From: Methanobacteriota archaeon
GTDB taxonomy: Archaea; Thermoplasmatota; E2; DHVEG-1
Direction of reading: 5' to 3'
Length of the DNA stretch: 64,000 nucleotides
Assembly (NCBI GenBank): GCA_963769885.1
Contig: CAVYNH010000006.1
Location: 544,001-608,000 of the forward strand
Under the pieces are notes generated by a model, which saw only the letters and a program-made list of their open reading frames with translations, did not search any database and was not told where the DNA came from. Below are positions 110 to 6,946 of this stretch, piece by piece (position 1 is the first letter of the stretch; each line of letters begins with the position of its first letter). The position numbers and the translations under genes were made by a program.

Positions 110-1276
110 ATGAAGCTGAAGCAGCGGCCACAGGACTTCATCGTCGAGGAGACCTCGAGTCTGACGTGGTCATCTCAGAAGGCGGCGCACGCGGTCTATG
201 CGATGGAGAAGACGGAGGTCGATACGTTCACGGCCGTCCGCGCGCTCGCCCGCCGTCTGCGTCTGCCCCCTGGGGAGGTCGGGTACGCGGGGCTGAAGGA
301 CAAGCACGCGATCGCACGGCAGTACATCTCGCTCCCAGTGCACTGCAACATCGAGACGATGCGCCTGCCGGGCATCGAGATCAAACGAGTCGGGTACCTT
401 CCCAACAAGATCCAGATCGGAGACCTCCAAGGCAATACGTTCACGATCGTCGTCAGAGACCTTTGTGATTCAGAACTGGACCATTTTATGGACCGAATCG
501 ACCACCTTCGCACCGACGGCGTCCCAAACTACTTCGACAGCCAGCGCTTCGGGAGTGTCATCAACCACGTCTTCATCGCCAAACTCCTCATCCAAGGCAA
601 GGACGAAGCGGCCGTGAGACAGTACCTAACCGCGTACCAGAAATCCGAGCCCAAGACCGTCAAAGACGAGAAGCGCAGACTCGCAGCCGAGTGGGCTCAC
701 CTCGCAGACATCCACGCCCGTGATCGGACAATCGCCCGCGTCATCGAGGAATACCGGACGACACAGAGCTGGCTCCAAGCCTACCAACACGTCCCCTCGC
801 AGCTTCGAGAGATCCACGCCAACGCCTACCAAAGCTACCTCTGGAACGAGATCCTCAAAGAACTCCTCCACACCATCGTCGACCGCAGACGGCTGTTCAC
901 GGTCGAGTACGCCGTCGGCTCACTCTTCTTCTACAAAGACCTGACAGCTGACGAACACCAGGCCATCCCCCCAGAGTTCTACACCCCTAGCGAGACCGCG
1001 CTGTATTCAGGCAAAGAGCTCACCGCAGTCAAAAAAATCCTCGCGCGAGAAGGCATCAGCCAACAGGACCTCGCCAGACTCCATGCTGCAGGCTACATCC
1101 TCAAAGCCCGACCACGCCCCACCATCCTCACACCCACAGACCTCTCCGCTACCGCGCCCCAGCCGGACGAACTCAACACCAAACCACGGGAACCACGCAG
1201 CAAAATCAAGCTCACCTTCACCCTCCCCAAGGGAGCCTACGCGACCATCGTCACCAAACAACTCTTCGGCCACTAA
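110..1276 (+). CDS. truD: tRNA pseudouridine(13) synthase TruD
   Basis: N-terminal KQRPQDFIVEE, catalytic motif GYAGLKDKHA, GNTFTI, PNYFDSQRFG and C-terminal FTLPKGAYAT. Confidence 0.95.
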   Translation: MKLKQRPQDFIVEETSSLTWSSQKAAHAVYAMEKTEVDTFTAVRALARRLRLPPGEVGYAGLKDKHAIARQYISLPVHCNIETMRLPGIEIKRVGYLPNKIQIGDLQGNTFTIVVRDLCDSELDHFMDRIDHLRTDGVPNYFDSQRFGSVINHVFIAKLLIQGKDEAAVRQYLTAYQKSEPKTVKDEKRRLAAEWAHLADIHARDRTIARVIEEYRTTQSWLQAYQHVPSQLREIHANAYQSYLWNEILKELLHTIVDRRRLFTVEYAVGSLFFYKDLTADEHQAIPPEFYTPSETALYSGKELTAVKKILAREGISQQDLARLHAAGYILKARPRPTILTPTDLSATAPQPDELNTKPREPRSKIKLTFTLPKGAYATIVTKQLFGH

Positions 1277-1590
1277 AGGTTGGGGATAAAGGCACGGCAA
1301 TTCCGCACCAACACCTCGATCTCTTCCTTCGTCGCCCCATCGATGTGGATACCGCCGACCGCGACGGCCGTCACATGATACCTCTCACACGCCGCCTTAG
1401 CGATGATCTCGAGAACCACGGTGTCGTAATGCCCCTGCCGCGAAAGCACTAGAGGCTTCTTCCCTGGCTCGCAAAGTACCACGCCGCCGACATGCGGCCG
1501 CTCACCGCCACCTAAAATATAGACGAGGTCCGAGCCCACCTGATGCTTCTCCAACCAGACCCGATACTTCCCGCTACCGGAGGTAATCAT
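1273..1590 (-). CDS. LpdD-like prenylated-flavin chaperone (small UbiD-associated protein)
   Basis: 105 aa with GGGERPHVGGVV, GHYD and GGIHIDGATKEEI motifs recalled for the LpdD family; overlaps the end of ubiD. Confidence 0.7.
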   Translation of the reverse strand: MITSGSGKYRVWLEKHQVGSDLVYILGGGERPHVGGVVLCEPGKKPLVLSRQGHYDTVVLEIIAKAACERYHVTAVAVGGIHIDGATKEEIEVLVRNCRAFIPNL

Positions 1591-2884
1591 CCAGCCTCAC
1601 AGGCTTGTACTTGACGACCTCGTACTTACTCTTGTCGACGCCCGCCGGGATCGTCGCATCGACGCCGACCTTGTCGGTCAGCGCCTTCTTGCCTTCCTCC
1701 TGCCTCGCAGTCGGGTCAAGAGAGCTTCCCGGCTGGTCGCACTTCACGACCAGATCCCTGCCGCCCTGGAACCGTGTCGCGATCGCCCACTCCACCGCCG
1801 TCGGGTTATAGATGTCCACGTCGCTGTCAATGATCACGACATGCTTCATGCTCTTATGGCCAAGGAACGCGGCCTCGATTGCCTTCTTCCCATCCTCCGG
1901 CGACTTCTTCTCAATCTGCACGATGCCATGCAGCCAGCTACCGCCACCCAACGTGATTAGCACGTTCTTGCAGGTCGCCACCTTGCTGACCTCATCGTAG
2001 ATCGTCGGCTCCTTCGGCATCCCCATCAGGTTCTTATGTTCAAGCCGCCCGGGGATGAGTGCTTGGTACATCGCGTCCTTGCGATGCGTGATGCAGTCGA
2101 CGGCGAACACGGGCTCCTTGCGCTCAAAGTCGCGGGTCTCGGTCAAATCCAGGAAAGGCCCTTCCTTGTCAGTCTGCTTCGTGAGACGACCTTCAATCAC
2201 AAACTCTGACTCTGAGGGGACCTCAAGGTCGTTGGTGACGCATTTCACCATCGTCATTGGATCCAGCGTATTCGCAATGGAAAACTCGTCCACACCAGAG
2301 GGCGGGCTGAGGCTCGCCGCGACCATCACGGGAACCGAGCTGCCGATACAGACAGCAAACGGCGTATCACCACTATTTTTATCATACGTCGTGCGCGTCT
2401 GCCTGCCCTTGATCAATCGCGCCGTGAAATGGTTCTTATCCCGCTTCATGAGCCGATGGTACGAGGCGTTGCGCCCGGTCTGCGGGTCTTTCACCGTCGC
2501 GACCGTCGCCGTGGCATAGTACCCCCCGTCACCAGGCAGATGGAACAACAATGGAAGCTCATCGAGGTTCGGAGTCTTCTCCACGACCTCCTGGCACGGA
2601 GCAGAGGTGACGATCTTTGGAACCGTTGGATGCCGCAGGGCGTTCACCAGCACCGGCAGGAGCTGCTCCTTCATCGTGCCGAACGCCTCCGCGATGATGT
2701 CCCGGTTCGACGTGATCCCGCCGAACACCGGGTACTTCGAGCCGGCGACATGGTCGAAGATCACCGGCTGCTCGCCGAGGGTGTTCATGATGTTGGCGAT
2801 CTCGTACTGTGTCGAAACCTCCTTTTTGATTTTGACGAGTTTCTTCTCTTGTTCCAGCTGTTTGAGAAACGGACGGAGTTGCAT
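1574..2884 (-). CDS. UbiD-family prFMN-dependent decarboxylase, probably anhydromevalonate-phosphate decarboxylase
   Basis: Likely start MQLRPFL at 2884; the ORF-track extension overlaps mvk. Motifs RNASYHRL, EGPFLD, VEWAIATRFQ, SSLDP, KVGVDAT. Lies directly downstream of mevalonate kinase. Confidence 0.85.
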   Translation of the reverse strand: MQLRPFLKQLEQEKKLVKIKKEVSTQYEIANIMNTLGEQPVIFDHVAGSKYPVFGGITSNRDIIAEAFGTMKEQLLPVLVNALRHPTVPKIVTSAPCQEVVEKTPNLDELPLLFHLPGDGGYYATATVATVKDPQTGRNASYHRLMKRDKNHFTARLIKGRQTRTTYDKNSGDTPFAVCIGSSVPVMVAASLSPPSGVDEFSIANTLDPMTMVKCVTNDLEVPSESEFVIEGRLTKQTDKEGPFLDLTETRDFERKEPVFAVDCITHRKDAMYQALIPGRLEHKNLMGMPKEPTIYDEVSKVATCKNVLITLGGGSWLHGIVQIEKKSPEDGKKAIEAAFLGHKSMKHVVIIDSDVDIYNPTAVEWAIATRFQGGRDLVVKCDQPGSSLDPTARQEEGKKALTDKVGVDATIPAGVDKSKYEVVKYKPVRLDDYLR

Positions 2885-2886
2885 AG

Positions 2887-3837
2887 TCACTCGACCTCGG
2901 TACGGGACATCCCGATAATCGTCTTGATGGTCTGGAAGCCTTCCTTCTCGATAGCGTTGGCAACGCGGTCCTGGACGGCTTTGCCGGGGGTGAGAGCGAT
3001 GATGTTGCCACCGAGCCCGCCGCCGGTGAGCTTGGCGCCGAGCGCCCCGCATTTCACCGCGACCTGGACGAGGAAGTCGAGCTCCCGGCTGCTGACCTCG
3101 ATCTGCTGCAGGAGCCGATGGTTCTCGTTCATCAGCTTACCGACGGCCTTATAATCGCCTTCCTCCAACGCCCGTTTGGCGAGGTAGGTGATGTTCTCAG
3201 CACGATCGAAGATTTCCTCGTACTTCTTGGGGTTCTTCTCCTTGCGTTCCTTGACGCCGGCGACCGCCGCCTGGGTGTTGGCCACCTTGCCGGTGTTCCC
3301 GATGACGATCTCCACGGGGGTGGAGACCGAGATTTTTTCGATGACGTTGTGGTCCGCTTTCTGGAACCAGATGAGGCCGCCGTAGGTCGAGGCGGTGTTG
3401 TCGACGCCGGAGGGCGTCCCATGGTAGCCTTTTTCGCCTTCGAAGGCGACGGCGTTGATCTCCTCATCGGAGAGATTGAGGGTGTAGTAGTCGGAGAGGG
3501 CGCGGGCGGCGGCGACGCAGGAGGCGGCGCTGGCGCCGATGCCGCTGGAGGCGACGAGGTTGCCGTCCAGGATGATCCGGATGCCCTTCGTTGAGAGGTC
3601 GATGTTCATTTTCTGCAGGATCCGGTTGAGGGAGTCGATCTGCTGGTCTTTCTTGTCTTCCTTGTAGTGGGGCGTTGCGGGCCGTAGGTCCTGCAGCTCA
3701 TACTGGGGCTTGTTTAGCGGTTCTATACGGGCTCTGGTGTACTGGCCAATGGCCGAGACGATGGAGGGGATGCCATAGACCACGAAATGTTCGTTGAAGA
3801 GGATTGCTTTTCCGAAACCGATGCCTTGTCCTTTCAT
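2887..3837 (-). CDS. mvk: mevalonate kinase (GHMP family)
   Basis: GKAILFNEHFVVYG, ATP loop SSGIGASAA, HGTPSGVD, GAKLTGGGLGG. Confidence 0.9.
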   Translation of the reverse strand: MKGQGIGFGKAILFNEHFVVYGIPSIVSAIGQYTRARIEPLNKPQYELQDLRPATPHYKEDKKDQQIDSLNRILQKMNIDLSTKGIRIILDGNLVASSGIGASAASCVAAARALSDYYTLNLSDEEINAVAFEGEKGYHGTPSGVDNTASTYGGLIWFQKADHNVIEKISVSTPVEIVIGNTGKVANTQAAVAGVKERKEKNPKKYEEIFDRAENITYLAKRALEEGDYKAVGKLMNENHRLLQQIEVSSRELDFLVQVAVKCGALGAKLTGGGLGGNIIALTPGKAVQDRVANAIEKEGFQTIKTIIGMSRTEVE

Positions 3838-3907
3838 TCGTATCACTCAGGAATTATCCTGGTTTTCTGCTGAATACTGATGAGAGTTTATTATGTTTAT
3901 GGGCAAA

Positions 3908-4444
3908 CTATGCCTGGTTTTCTCCGAGAGGTGTGCCGCAGGCATGCCGCAGGGAGCAGTGTTGGCAGCGGCGGGGGTCGTCGTGATTCAGGATTACCCG
4001 GCCGGTGGTCAGTGTCTGCCGCATCCGCCGCATGGTCTCCTCCAAGGAATACCGCAGCTGGGGGTCGAAGGGGATCTTGGTCGGCTGGTCGCCCAGGACG
4101 AGGATGCCGTAGGGGACGAACTCCCCGGTGGTGTCCTCGAGGAGTTGGCAATAGGCGGCCAGCTGCAGGACGTGGCTGGGCTGCGGATGGGTATGGTGTC
4201 CGGTCTTGACCTCGATGGGAACGAGATGGTCATCCTGGCGCAGGATGTAGTCAGGTTTGCCCGTCAACTGGAGACGTCGTGAGAACAGAGGAGCGGCGGG
4301 GATGGAGAGATCCTGATACACTAAGGTGCCGTCAGGGATTCCGTGTTGTGTCTTCTGGGCCTGGGTTCGGCGACGCATGGTCAGGGCGGAGACGATGAGG
4401 AGGCTGGCGATGAGCAGGAGGATGAGGGGCAGCAGGATGCTCAC
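3908..4444 (-). CDS. Cas4-like PD-(D/E)XK nuclease, C-terminal part, with N-terminal transmembrane helix
   Basis: Hydrophobic residues 2-21, then GKPDY, IEVKT, QLAAY and C-terminal CxxCxxxxxC (CQHCSLRHAC). Lacks the N-terminal Cys motif. Confidence 0.85.
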   Translation of the reverse strand: MSILLPLILLLIASLLIVSALTMRRRTQAQKTQHGIPDGTLVYQDLSIPAAPLFSRRLQLTGKPDYILRQDDHLVPIEVKTGHHTHPQPSHVLQLAAYCQLLEDTTGEFVPYGILVLGDQPTKIPFDPQLRYSLEETMRRMRQTLTTGRVILNHDDPRRCQHCSLRHACGTPLGENQA

Positions 4445-4710
4445 AGGACCACCCCGAGGAAGAGAGCCAGGAGAGAGAGGAGGAGCAGGAGGAGGCCGAG
4501 GGCAAGGGCGCGGGAGGCATGGCGCTGGCGGCGCTGGATGCTCTCCAGGCTGTAGCCGAGGTCTGTGTGGCGGTCAGTGCCCGTGTTGAGTCCGGGTGAT
4601 TCTGGCTGGTGGCCTTGGCGGCGGAGGTACCAGGCGTTGGAGCAGTAGGTGTATTGGCCGATCTCGGAGGCGCTGAGGACGCGTGAAGCCTGGGGCGGGC
4701 GGGTTCCCAT
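4441..4710 (-). CDS. Cas4-like N-terminal module with C-terminal transmembrane helix (89 aa)
   Basis: ATG at 4710. LSASEIGQYTYCSNAWYL...G...H matches the Cas4 N-terminus carrying the first Fe-S Cys. Ends in LALGLLLLLLSLLALFLGVVL. GTGA stop/start overlap with the next gene. Confidence 0.75.
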   Translation of the reverse strand: MGTRPPQASRVLSASEIGQYTYCSNAWYLRRQGHQPESPGLNTGTDRHTDLGYSLESIQRRQRHASRALALGLLLLLLSLLALFLGVVL

Positions 4711-4963
4711 CAAGAGGAGGAGAGGGGGGTGGTCGTATATAAGGGCGGTGTGGGGGTCGGCGAAAGTACCCAGAGGCTTTGTCTCAAAAGTATTCAGTCG
4801 TCCCCCGAGATCGTTTTTCTCGTCTTGAAGTGGCTTCAGGAGGAACCTTTGAGTTTTGAGACAACGCCGTACCCAGAATCCGGTGGGGGGGGGTTTGGTG
4901 TTTCCCAAACGATTTCCGACACTATATAAGGTTTCATGGATATAGCGGTGAATGTGATTCCCC

Positions 4964-6946
4964 ATGTCTGAAAAAAAAGTGAAAGTCCAGGCCATCCTCT
5001 TGGTCGGCGTGCTCGTCTGCGCGAGCATCGCGATCCTAGGGGTGTTCAGCTCCCTGCCGACGGCGGGGAAATATACCTACGCCTTGAACCATTTCCAGTC
5101 CTACGACGAGCTGCTCGAGTTCCTCAAGCAGCGGGCGAGTAGCTACGGATCGACTTATCTGGCGAACGCGCTGAAGGATTCGACGGCCGGCCGCGGGTCG
5201 AGCGAGCTCGGGCCCGTAAGTCCGCAGGCGCCGGTGCCGCATTCCTCGACGAACGTCCAAGTCGCCGGCGTGGACGAGCCGGATACGGTCAAGACCGACG
5301 GCACTTACATTTACACGATATCTAACAACACCCTCTTCATCGCCCTCGCCTACCCGGCCTCTGAGATGCATATCGTCGCGAAGATCTCGTTTGACATGAA
5401 CAACTCCGTGCAGTCGTTCTTCATCAACGGCGACCGGCTCGTCGCCTTCTGCTCCGGCTACGCGTACCCGATTCTCTACTATGGCGGTGGCGTCCGCGTC
5501 ATGGAAGACCTCATCTACCCTGGCTGGTACAGCACCCAGATGCAGATCCGCGTCTACGACATCAGCGACCGCAGCAGCCCCAGCCTCGTCAAATCCCTCA
5601 AGATGGACGGCTACTTCCTCGACGCCCGCATGATCGGCTCCTACGTCTACGTCGTCAGCAGCACCCCCACCTATAGCATCTACACCACCGTTGACGGCAA
5701 CGAGACCCTCCGCGTCCCCACCATCACCATCGATAACGAGACGAAGAACATCAGCGCCGACAACATCTACTACGTCGACGTCCCGGAGCTCGCGGACAGC
5801 ATGACCAACGTCCTCAGCCTCAACATCGACACCAACGACGTCAACGAGAAAAGCTTCATGCTCGGCAGCTCACAAACCATGTACGTCTCCCAGGACAACA
5901 TCTACCTCGCCACCAACCACTACCCCACCGGCATCCTCGCCGAAGAGACCAACGGCACCCCCGCCACCGAGACCACGATTATCCACAAGATCGCCATCAG
6001 CCAGGACAGCATCGACTACGTCGCCCAAGGCGAAGTCCCCGGCCACATCCTCAACCAGTTCGCCATGGACGAACACGACGGCTACTTCCGCATCGCCACC
6101 ACCACCGACTACTACAACGGCGAAGAGTACCAGACCACCAACAACGTCTACGTCCTCACCAGCGACCTCAAGCGCGCCGGCACCCTGGAGAACCTCGCAC
6201 CCGGCGAAAGCATCTACGCTGTCCGATTCCTCGGCGACCGCGCCTACCTCGTCACCTTCGTCCAAGTCGACCCGCTCTTCGTCCTCGACCTCTCCGACCC
6301 CACCAACCCCACAGTCCTCGGCGAACTCAAGATCCCCGGCTACTCCACCTACCTGCACCCCTACGACGCCACCCACATCATCGGCATCGGCCGCGAAGTC
6401 GACCGCAGCATCGACGCCGACAAGGTCCACACCCCCGGCGCCGTCTACTACACCGCCATCCAAGGCCTTAAGTTCGCCTTGTTCGACGTCACCGACGTCG
6501 CCAACCCCGTCGAACTCTACACCATCGCCCTCGGCGACCGCGGCACCGACAGCCCCGCCCTCTACGACCACCACGCCTTCCTCTTCGACCACGACACAGG
6601 CCTCCTCGTCATCCCCGTCAGCCTCTGGGAGATTCCCCAGACGACCCTCGACACCCTCAACGACAGCAACGCCACTGAGATCGCCTGGGACTGGGGCCAG
6701 TACACCTTCCAGGGCGCCTACGTCTACCGCCTCACCATCGACGACGGCTTCCAGCTCCAAGGGCGCATCACCCACCGCGACACCAACGATCCAGTAGACT
6801 CATGGTCCTACGGCGTCAGCACCGACATCACCCGCAGCCTCTACATCGGCGACACCCTCTACACCATCTCCACCAGCAAAATCAAGGCCAACAGCCTCGC
6901 CGCAGGCGACAACCTGCAGGAGCTCGCAAGCATCACGCTCGCCTAA
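4964..6946 (+). CDS. membrane-anchored/secreted beta-propeller domain protein (COG4880-like)
   Basis: N-terminal hydrophobic segment; STNVQVAGVDEPDTVKTDG, LNQFAMDE, GESIYAVRF, VTFVQVDPLFVLDL, GELKIPGYSTYLHP. Confidence 0.85.
   Translation: MSEKKVKVQAILLVGVLVCASIAILGVFSSLPTAGKYTYALNHFQSYDELLEFLKQRASSYGSTYLANALKDSTAGRGSSELGPVSPQAPVPHSSTNVQVAGVDEPDTVKTDGTYIYTISNNTLFIALAYPASEMHIVAKISFDMNNSVQSFFINGDRLVAFCSGYAYPILYYGGGVRVMEDLIYPGWYSTQMQIRVYDISDRSSPSLVKSLKMDGYFLDARMIGSYVYVVSSTPTYSIYTTVDGNETLRVPTITIDNETKNISADNIYYVDVPELADSMTNVLSLNIDTNDVNEKSFMLGSSQTMYVSQDNIYLATNHYPTGILAEETNGTPATETTIIHKIAISQDSIDYVAQGEVPGHILNQFAMDEHDGYFRIATTTDYYNGEEYQTTNNVYVLTSDLKRAGTLENLAPGESIYAVRFLGDRAYLVTFVQVDPLFVLDLSDPTNPTVLGELKIPGYSTYLHPYDATHIIGIGREVDRSIDADKVHTPGAVYYTAIQGLKFALFDVTDVANPVELYTIALGDRGTDSPALYDHHAFLFDHDTGLLVIPVSLWEIPQTTLDTLNDSNATEIAWDWGQYTFQGAYVYRLTIDDGFQLQGRITHRDTNDPVDSWSYGVSTDITRSLYIGDTLYTISTSKIKANSLAAGDNLQELASITLA

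Follow-up and report, generated by a model that had tools for sequence, protein, structure and literature searches.

An overlapping gene pair of a Thermoplasmatota archaeon that likely encodes the two chains of one membrane-anchored Cas4-family nuclease

Nucleases of the Cas4 family are known from CRISPR adaptation and DNA repair as soluble enzymes, in which one N-terminal and three C-terminal cysteines ligate a [4Fe-4S] cluster. The family is marked by metal-dependent nuclease activity on ssDNA, as a 5'-3' exonuclease or an endonuclease. Their nuclease fold is shared with the iron-staple domains of AddB, AdnAB, Dna2, Exo5 and MGME1, and in several of these a 1+3 cysteine cluster clamps together the N- and C-terminal parts of the domain; these enzymes are soluble and mostly helicase-fused, and we know of none that is inserted into a membrane or split at the staple. 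The subject of this report is a pair of overlapping genes in a 64,000-nucleotide stretch of a Methanobacteriota archaeon (GTDB lineage Archaea; Thermoplasmatota; E2; DHVEG-1; assembly GCA_963769885.1, contig CAVYNH010000006.1, positions 544,001 to 608,000), the whole of which is called the window below. The two genes likely encode the halves of one such nuclease, each with its own membrane anchor. Closest among described systems is the Cas4 of CRISPR adaptation (TIGR00372/PF01930; structures 8D3L of type I-C, 7MI4 of Cas4-Cas1, 4IC1 of SSO0001 and 4R5Q of Pcal_0546), with which the pair has in common the D...E.K core, the Q..Y helix, the 1+3 cysteines (C..C.....C) and an N-terminal helix bearing a histidine. 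It differs from CRISPR Cas4 in that the source genome lacks cas1, that no cas2 or CRISPR array accompanies the pair, and that the fold of the family is interrupted by transmembrane (TM) helices between the N-terminal helices and the first core strand, here with two polypeptides as the outcome. Solo-Cas4 genes, which lie outside CRISPR-cas loci (Hudaiberdiev et al. 2017, PMC5704561; M. mazei Solo-Cas4, PMC12501428), resemble the pair as chromosomal members of the family without cas neighbours. The Solo-Cas4 proteins described in these papers are soluble single chains, unlike the split membrane pair, and a text search of both papers found neither the word "transmembrane" nor a membrane or split Cas4. 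Literature on Cas4, membrane-bound nucleases, Thermoplasmatota and the nuclease SNIPE likewise yielded no description of a membrane-inserted or split Cas4. New here are the anatomy of the gene junction and three leads on function that involve TRAM domains, TRAX-like genes and a thermonuclease (SNase)-like protein.

Both genes are read from the minus strand of the window, and their features are as follows.

4441..4710, minus strand: small subunit gene, 89 amino acids, with the Cas4 N-terminal Cys and His helices and a C-terminal TM helix
4642-4644, minus strand: Cys23 of the small gene
4567-4569, minus strand: His48 of the small gene
about 4444-4509, minus strand: tail-anchor TM helix of the small gene, C-terminal and reaching the last residue
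3908..4444, minus strand: large subunit gene, 178 amino acids, with an N-terminal TM helix followed by the Cas4 PD-(D/E)XK core
about 4379-4441, minus strand: N-terminal TM helix of the large gene, with an RRR stretch behind it
4250-4252, minus strand: catalytic residue D65 of the large gene
4211-4213, minus strand: catalytic residue E78 of the large gene
4205-4207, minus strand: catalytic residue K80 of the large gene
4151-4165, minus strand: Q94/Y98 of the large gene
within 3938-3967, minus strand: C160, C163 and C169 of the large gene
4441..4444, minus strand: stop-start overlap GTGA, in which the GTG of the large gene opens one base ahead of the TGA stop of the small gene
4448..4455, minus strand: Shine-Dalgarno-like GGGGTGGT in the last codons of the small gene, 3 nt before the GTG of the large gene

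Along the small open reading frame (ORF) the motifs run in the order SASEIGQYTYC..AWYL, G...H helix, RRQRHASR and a hydrophobic helix that continues to the final residue, and along the large ORF they run hydrophobic helix, MRRR, GKPD, EVK, QLAAYC and CQHCSLRHAC. An earlier note, written from the letters of the window, had described the motifs of the two ORFs, the two TM helices and the GTGA overlap, and every detail proved correct on re-reading. A longer reading of the small ORF, of 195 amino acids from a start at 5028, is unlikely because a strain of 96% identity carries two 1-nt indels, at 4713 and 4735, that lie just ahead of the ATG at 4710; relatives begin at the MGTRP methionine.

The two-gene arrangement is real, old and conserved, and is no artefact. 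A word-index search with the large ORF returned 304 relatives, nearly all of 145-200 amino acids and with the same N-terminal TM helix, and an exhaustive HMMER search returned 1165. Directly upstream of relatives at 42-65% identity lies an ORF of 85-92 amino acids with the small-ORF motif, despite differing surrounding genes, and the small ORF stands immediately upstream in all 29 loci (L010-L038) fetched from the taxonomic family of the window. A search with the small ORF alone, across 185,579 species genomes, gave hits in 222, hosted by Thermoplasmatota, Methanothrix/Methanotrichaceae, Dehalococcoidales, Chloroflexia and one Syntrophobacterales bin. Among the best 80 of these loci, the large ORF lies immediately downstream in 78, is fused in one and lies 215 nt away in one; two Anaerolineae-type Chloroflexi species have one unrelated gene between the two ORFs. 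The two-gene split that the earlier note had read from a single sequence, and for which it had proposed a survey of genomes, is thereby found in 29/29 and 78/80 loci. The -1 offset of the two ORFs and the existence of single-chain relatives with two TM helices might raise the suspicion of a frameshift error in sequencing or assembly, or of a single-chain gene that has recently become a pseudogene. The chance of this is next to negligible, as 94 distinct loci, drawn from many species, assemblies and studies, have the two-ORF form, and both ORFs stay open with invariant functional residues. The earlier note had named an indel in reads at this site, together with single-chain homologues that lack TM helices, as a result that would overturn its reading; an independent 8.5-kb contig of the 96%-identical strain, from another run, differs by 35 substitutions and 0 indels across 3908-4710.

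Profile searches place the pair in the Cas4 family and divide one domain between its two genes. The large ORF scores above the curated cut-offs of TIGR00372 cas4 (2e-19, 70.1 bits against a cut-off of 65, model positions 60-180 of 180) and of Pfam Cas_Cas4 PF01930 (1.3e-8, 35.5 bits against 22.7), and it aligns only from about position 55 to 180 of the Cas4 models. The small ORF alone gives a sub-threshold match to PDDEXK_1 (E 0.07, 13.5 bits against 22) at model positions 2-45 of 247. Since this match covers the part of the model that is absent from the large ORF, the two ORFs are complementary parts of one domain; running Cas4 and PD-(D/E)XK profiles on each ORF, as the earlier note had suggested, thus finds the large one securely and the small one below threshold on the complementary part. 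Pfam and PADLOC together return solely Cas4, PDDEXK and DruK models for the pair. Whereas a canonical Cas4 is a single soluble polypeptide, here there are two chains with one TM helix each.

Single-chain relatives carry the same parts in one protein. A search of 301 genomes of the phylum matched the family in 213, with an open frame of about 180-230 amino acids in the family of the window as against 280-730 in most other families. In the fused loci the N-terminal Cas4 motif is followed by 2, 4 or 8 TM helices and then by the same core, and with an even number of TM helices the two soluble parts end up on the same side of the membrane. Split-type proteins make up about 100 of the 150 best cluster representatives, and the fused ones have 2, 4 or 8 TM helices, counts of 3 or 7 being threshold misses. 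The word-index search had found no longer relatives of the large ORF (313-2000 amino acids), and the fused forms surfaced in the genome and HMMER searches. The earlier note had counted single-chain homologues lacking TM helices as part of a refuting result; single-chain relatives do exist, yet they bear 2, 4 or 8 TM helices. In the fused 2-TM relative P0146 a single PDDEXK_1 match spans residues 12-257 and model positions 2-246 of 247. Its AlphaFold model (pLDDT 89.7) is a Cas4 core with a long protruding helical hairpin, for which the best PDB match is the type I-C Cas4 8d3l_I (E 4e-8, target-normalised TM-score 0.69), followed by Dna2, Cas4-Cas1, SSO0001, ACE1, AdnAB, MGME1 and Exo5. Judged from these fused relatives, the pair in the window is a two-chain version of a large membrane-embedded Cas4-like family, cut at the outer turn of the hairpin; the earlier note had missed this larger family behind the split pair. 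In a FastTree of the core domain, split proteins and 2-TM fused ones fall among each other, with 9 of 140 branches starred and some "fused" labels due to mis-called N-termini; on this tree the split or fused state appears to have changed more than once, and its weak resolution cannot fix the number of changes. The family also has a highly conserved segment of its own, GIP.G.I.YSDL..PA.PLFS (large-ORF residues 36-56), which comes after the second TM helix and ahead of the first core strand and to which the canonical Cas4 models have no counterpart.

The residues expected of a Cas4 enzyme are conserved across the two chains. In an alignment of 31 small-ORF homologues (A2), A14, S15, C23, W27, G33, G44 and H48 are invariant, and in an alignment of 21 large-ORF homologues (A1, from which the segment above was also read) D65, E78, K80, Q94, Y98, C160, C163 and C169 are invariant; the same residues are also invariant in the 2-TM single-chain forms. 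The catalytic D...E.K and Q..Y set is thus complete in the large chain, and the 1+3 cysteines of Cas4 are spread over the two, C23 in the small and C160, C163 and C169 in the large. In SSO0001 the metal ligands are His62, Asp99, Glu113 and Lys115 (PMC13621843). Within its G...H helix the small ORF has H48, probably an active-site metal ligand and putatively the counterpart of SSO0001 His62; the earlier note had overlooked this likely role. By motif order the small chain would therefore give one cluster ligand and one metal ligand, so that neither chain is complete alone. Alternatively, the large ORF by itself could be a working, truncated and singly anchored Cas4 with Cys99 as its fourth cluster ligand, the small ORF being an unrelated membrane peptide. 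C99 (in QLAAYC) is indeed invariant in the 21 split-type sequences of A1; the position is, however, Met or Leu in many fused members (L040, L041, L045, L047), and Cys99 was rejected as the fourth ligand on this ground. Moreover, the small ORF carries the canonical Cas4 N-terminal motif with its invariant Cys and His, co-occurs with the large ORF in 80/80 loci and is covalently joined to it in the fused forms, all of which makes this alternative highly improbable.

Charges around the TM helices indicate the side on which the two parts lie. Within 15 residues of the TM helix the small chain has on average 3.9 lysines and arginines before it and 0.1 after it, and the large chain 0.2 before and 4.5 after; only about 2 residues of each chain project past the membrane. 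Because this distribution obeys the positive-inside rule, both soluble parts are predicted to be cytoplasmic, and the cytoplasm is the expected place for an Fe-S enzyme. Modelled as a complex from our own alignments, with a 4Fe-4S cluster riding along, the pair passes its controls, with ipSAE values of 0.80, 0.81 and 0.80 as against 0.00 for the best of three controls (in calibration, 58 of 80 solved complexes attained the ipSAE mark, as did 2 of 110 mismatched pairs). Between runs at least 95% of contacts are shared, at a partner pLDDT of 76-77. Modelled contacts link residues 10-31 and 47-56 of the small chain to residues 59-66, 88-98, 134-154 and 163-171 of the large chain, and TM helix to TM helix; the invariant H48 lies inside this interface.

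Taken with the predicted translational coupling discussed below, we consider it likely that the two genes encode two chains of one membrane-anchored, cytoplasm-facing Cas4-family nuclease whose translation is coupled. The earlier note had proposed that two membrane proteins pair into a single cytoplasm-facing Fe-S nuclease, and conservation, invariant residues, fused relatives, charges and the model all support this proposal. In the mechanism that we envisage, the small chain would be tail-anchored and would give the first two helices of the Cas4 fold, the cluster cysteine C23 and the putative metal-binding H48, while the large chain would be held by an N-out/C-in anchor and would give the D65/E78/K80 core, the Q..Y helix and the other three cluster cysteines. 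A break at the outer turn of the single-chain TM hairpin would let the two TM helices pair in the membrane, and docking of the soluble parts would complete both cluster and active site. Translation would be coupled by the overlap of stop and start behind a Shine-Dalgarno sequence, so that the chains would be made together and at the same place. Of all this, conservation, complementary motifs, fused relatives and the build of the junction are observed, whereas assembly, topology, Fe-S content and coupled initiation are inferred from them. Several points weigh against this reading. H48 is equated with His62 from its place in the order of motifs and from the account in PMC13621843 rather than by superposition. 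As the two chains are halves of a solved fold, the pass of the complex model may partly be memory of monomeric Cas4 structures, in which case it shows likeness and not binding, and the use of our own alignments and of a riding 4Fe-4S ligand departs from the calibration of the tool.

The junction of the two genes has an anatomy of its own. In at least 80 of the 94 distinct split loci (87 by another count) the large frame lies at -1 relative to the small one, and in these loci an NTR codon starts exactly one base ahead of the small-ORF stop. Among 80 Thermoplasmatota-type loci the overlap reads ATAG in 47, ATAA in 10, CTAA in 7, TTAA in 4 and TTGA in 4, and more rarely ATGA (3), CTGA (3), GTAA (1) and GTGA (1, the window). 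In 28 of the 87 loci the large frame has no ATG, GTG or TTG from where it opens to at least codon +8, and the overlapped codon is ATA in 28/28; a canonical start in these loci would lose the conserved TM helix. GAG GTG ATy yTA, the codons for the conserved E-V-I-L with which the small protein ends, contain GGAGGTGAT at normal spacing between Shine-Dalgarno sequence and start; GGAGGTGAT is the complement of the conserved 3' end of 16S rRNA. At least six of eight matches to GGAGGTGA are found 3-17 nt upstream of the large-ORF start in 56 of 80 related loci, and in the window the GTGA at 4441-4444 with GGGGTGGT at 4448-4455 has the form of a translationally coupled overlapping pair, for which coupling is predicted. 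Methanothrix large ORFs have ordinary ATG starts 4-7 codons upstream of the small-ORF stop.

Read together, these features point to coupled initiation or reinitiation at a mostly non-canonical start (ATA, or CTG), which, if true, would have the two chains made in equal amounts and at one site. In most split loci of Thermoplasmatota the large ORF lacks a canonical start, which suggests that coupled translation is obligatory. SD-like elements, that is, those resembling Shine-Dalgarno sequences, can also stimulate frameshifting, and a programmed -1 ribosomal frameshift could in principle make the two ORFs one gene that yields one 2-TM polypeptide. Such an origin would account for the recurring -1 offset, for the 28 loci with no canonical start in the large frame and for the strong SD-like sequence ahead of the junction. 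Yet no slippery heptamer is conserved, since the bases before the stop vary (ATTTTATAG, ATCCTATAG, GTCTTATAA, GTCCTGTGA), and most of these sequences rule out re-pairing of the tRNA in the -1 frame. The invariant feature is instead the NTR codon, mostly ATA, one base before the stop at the spacing of Shine-Dalgarno sequence and start, which is how a site of coupled initiation is built. Given the lack of a conserved slippery sequence and the upstream ATG starts of Methanothrix, frameshifting is less likely than coupled initiation, and we hold it to be very unlikely.

Coupled initiation at such a codon bears on the annotation of the family, as the real start of the large subunit appears to be an ATA or CTG that overlaps the stop. 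The 96%-identical strain has CTG in place of GTG at 4444, and its database protein P0004 (156 amino acids) is called from Met23, without the TM helix; many database entries of 191-201 amino acids (for example P0017) begin upstream in the wrong frame. Both kinds of entry would be explained by a non-canonical start codon overlapping the stop. Public N-termini of the large subunit are thus unreliable, often being placed either too late, with loss of the TM helix, or too early, with translation of the wrong frame.

No CRISPR-like array was found in the 64-kb window, and neither Cas1 nor a second Cas4 match in the source genome (2.09 Mb, 92% complete), which bears out the statement of the earlier note that the window holds no CRISPR array or other cas gene and extends it, for Cas1, to the genome. 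None of the family neighbourhoods examined contains cas genes, defence islands or mobile elements. The gene is single-copy; 33 of 35 genomes in the taxonomic family of the window carry it, as do 42 of 42 in another. Being single-copy and near-universal in several families, it looks like a gene of housekeeping type rather than of defence. By analogy with Cas4, Dna2 and Exo5 enzymes, we suggest, tentatively and as a possibility open to considerable doubt, that the enzyme trims or degrades free single-stranded nucleic-acid ends, most likely of DNA, at the inner face of the membrane, in a housekeeping role unrelated to CRISPR.

The earlier note had offered DNA uptake, processing of incoming DNA or defence as roles, and the near-universal single-copy distribution argues against a typical defence gene. 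A precedent for defence is SNIPE (PMC13190303), an E. coli nuclease of the GIY-YIG type that is bound to the membrane and cuts phage DNA while it is being injected; it shows that a tether can direct a nuclease to incoming DNA. Its likeness to the pair lies in a possible working mode only, with an N-out single-pass anchor, a cytoplasmic nuclease and a tether that could restrict access to the chromosome. SNIPE differs in its unrelated fold and domains (GIY-YIG, DUF4041), its single chain and its patchy distribution as a defence gene, whereas the present family is a phylum core gene. An anti-virus or anti-plasmid nuclease, kept off the chromosome by its tether and cutting entering DNA as SNIPE does, would agree with the predicted topology, which matches that of SNIPE (PMC13190303), with the closest sequence models, Cas4 and DruK, both from defence systems, and with a probable secreted SNase-like gene that comes next in the Methanothrix operon. 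We nevertheless think this role unlikely, given the core-gene distribution (33/35 and 42/42 genomes, with the 213 of 301 phylum genomes including nearly all members of several families) and the housekeeping neighbours (mevalonate kinase, eRF1/Pelota-like, ABCE1, tRNA synthetases, Trm5); the pair also has no DUF4041 or GIY-YIG domain. The Methanothrix gene occurs in 13 loci as a conserved signal-peptide protein that follows the large ORF with a 1-nt overlap (216 amino acids; L099, 3797-4447). Its match to SNase is sub-threshold in Pfam (E 0.062), with an ESM Atlas look-alike at 0.92; the protein, P0289, has no sequence match in the PDB and an AlphaFold pLDDT of 37. It is probably a secreted thermonuclease-like protein.

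Two further leads concern the substrate. In one lineage of four genomes an 8-TM form of the family ends in one or two C-terminal TRAM domains (Pfam TRAM, E 5e-7 to 8e-18), and in three Chloroflexi lineages a TRAX/translin-like gene overlaps the small-ORF start (A. fulgidus TRAX 3zc1, 1.7e-24). The positions, each within its own locus, are as follows.

L047, 1182-1511, minus strand: TRAM fusion
L132, 3085-3384, plus strand: TRAM fusion
L133, 967-1434, minus strand: TRAM fusion
L134, 2106-2405, plus strand: TRAM fusion
L004, 3509-4174: TRAX-like gene beside the small ORF
L007, 3079-3729: TRAX-like gene beside the small ORF
L140, 3-617: TRAX-like gene beside the small ORF

These TRAM fusions and the TRAX-like partner would fit an RNA substrate as well as a DNA one, which speaks against the role proposed above. 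With the recurrence of translation-related neighbours (those found elsewhere are eRF1/Pelota-like, ABCE1, alanine dehydrogenase, Trm5 and prolyl- or histidyl-tRNA synthetase), they could mean that the enzyme acts in membrane-proximal turnover or processing of RNA and not on DNA. That role seems quite unlikely to us, however, because the structural relatives (Cas4, Dna2, AdnAB, MGME1, Exo5) are all DNA nucleases, TRAM is a general nucleic-acid-binding OB fold, and translation genes commonly adjoin by chance in small genomes. TRAX, moreover, was present in 4 of 5 further genomes and never beside the pair, and in the genome of the window the Translin match is about 390 kb from the pair (contig C6, 157325-157615); TRAX was rejected as a general partner for this reason. 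The TRAM, TRAX and SNase leads all fit a nuclease of single-stranded nucleic acid, whether DNA or RNA and whether in housekeeping or in surveillance of entry.

Soluble Cas4 forms toroids, and by analogy a bolder arrangement can be imagined for Thermoplasmatota, and also for Methanothrix and some Chloroflexi. The family might be an unrecognised core machine in which Cas4-like domains under 2-8 TM helices oligomerise round a membrane conduit and process nucleic acid that crosses or docks there, in DNA uptake, export or entry surveillance, the split large subunit being made only by termination-coupled AUA initiation. We put this forward as a speculation with little probability. If true, the systematic AUA start would be a rare use of a non-canonical start in archaea.

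Around the pair in the window, a mevalonate kinase gene (2887-3846, minus strand) lies directly downstream on the same strand, followed by a UbiD-family decarboxylase gene, listed at 1574-3052 on the minus strand (436 amino acids in relatives), and by a gene for an LpdD-like small protein (1273-1590, minus strand). This cluster (1273-3846, minus strand) is kept in relatives and is probably part of an archaeal variant of the mevalonate pathway. Divergent from the pair, positions 4964-6946 of the plus strand encode a 660-amino-acid protein with an N-terminal anchor and a Pfam Beta_propel domain; this arrangement of the divergent gene and the pair is common to 14 related loci.

In this family, the Fe-S nuclease fold known from soluble Cas4 enzymes appears to be built into the membrane. 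Unconnected with CRISPR, the gene is a single-copy core gene across an archaeal phylum to which abundant archaea of the sea and of sediments belong. The split form would be a natural two-chain protein with a composite Fe-S cluster and active site, and thereby a clean test system for the "iron staple". More broadly, the family points to an unstudied, membrane-linked step in the nucleic-acid metabolism of these archaea.

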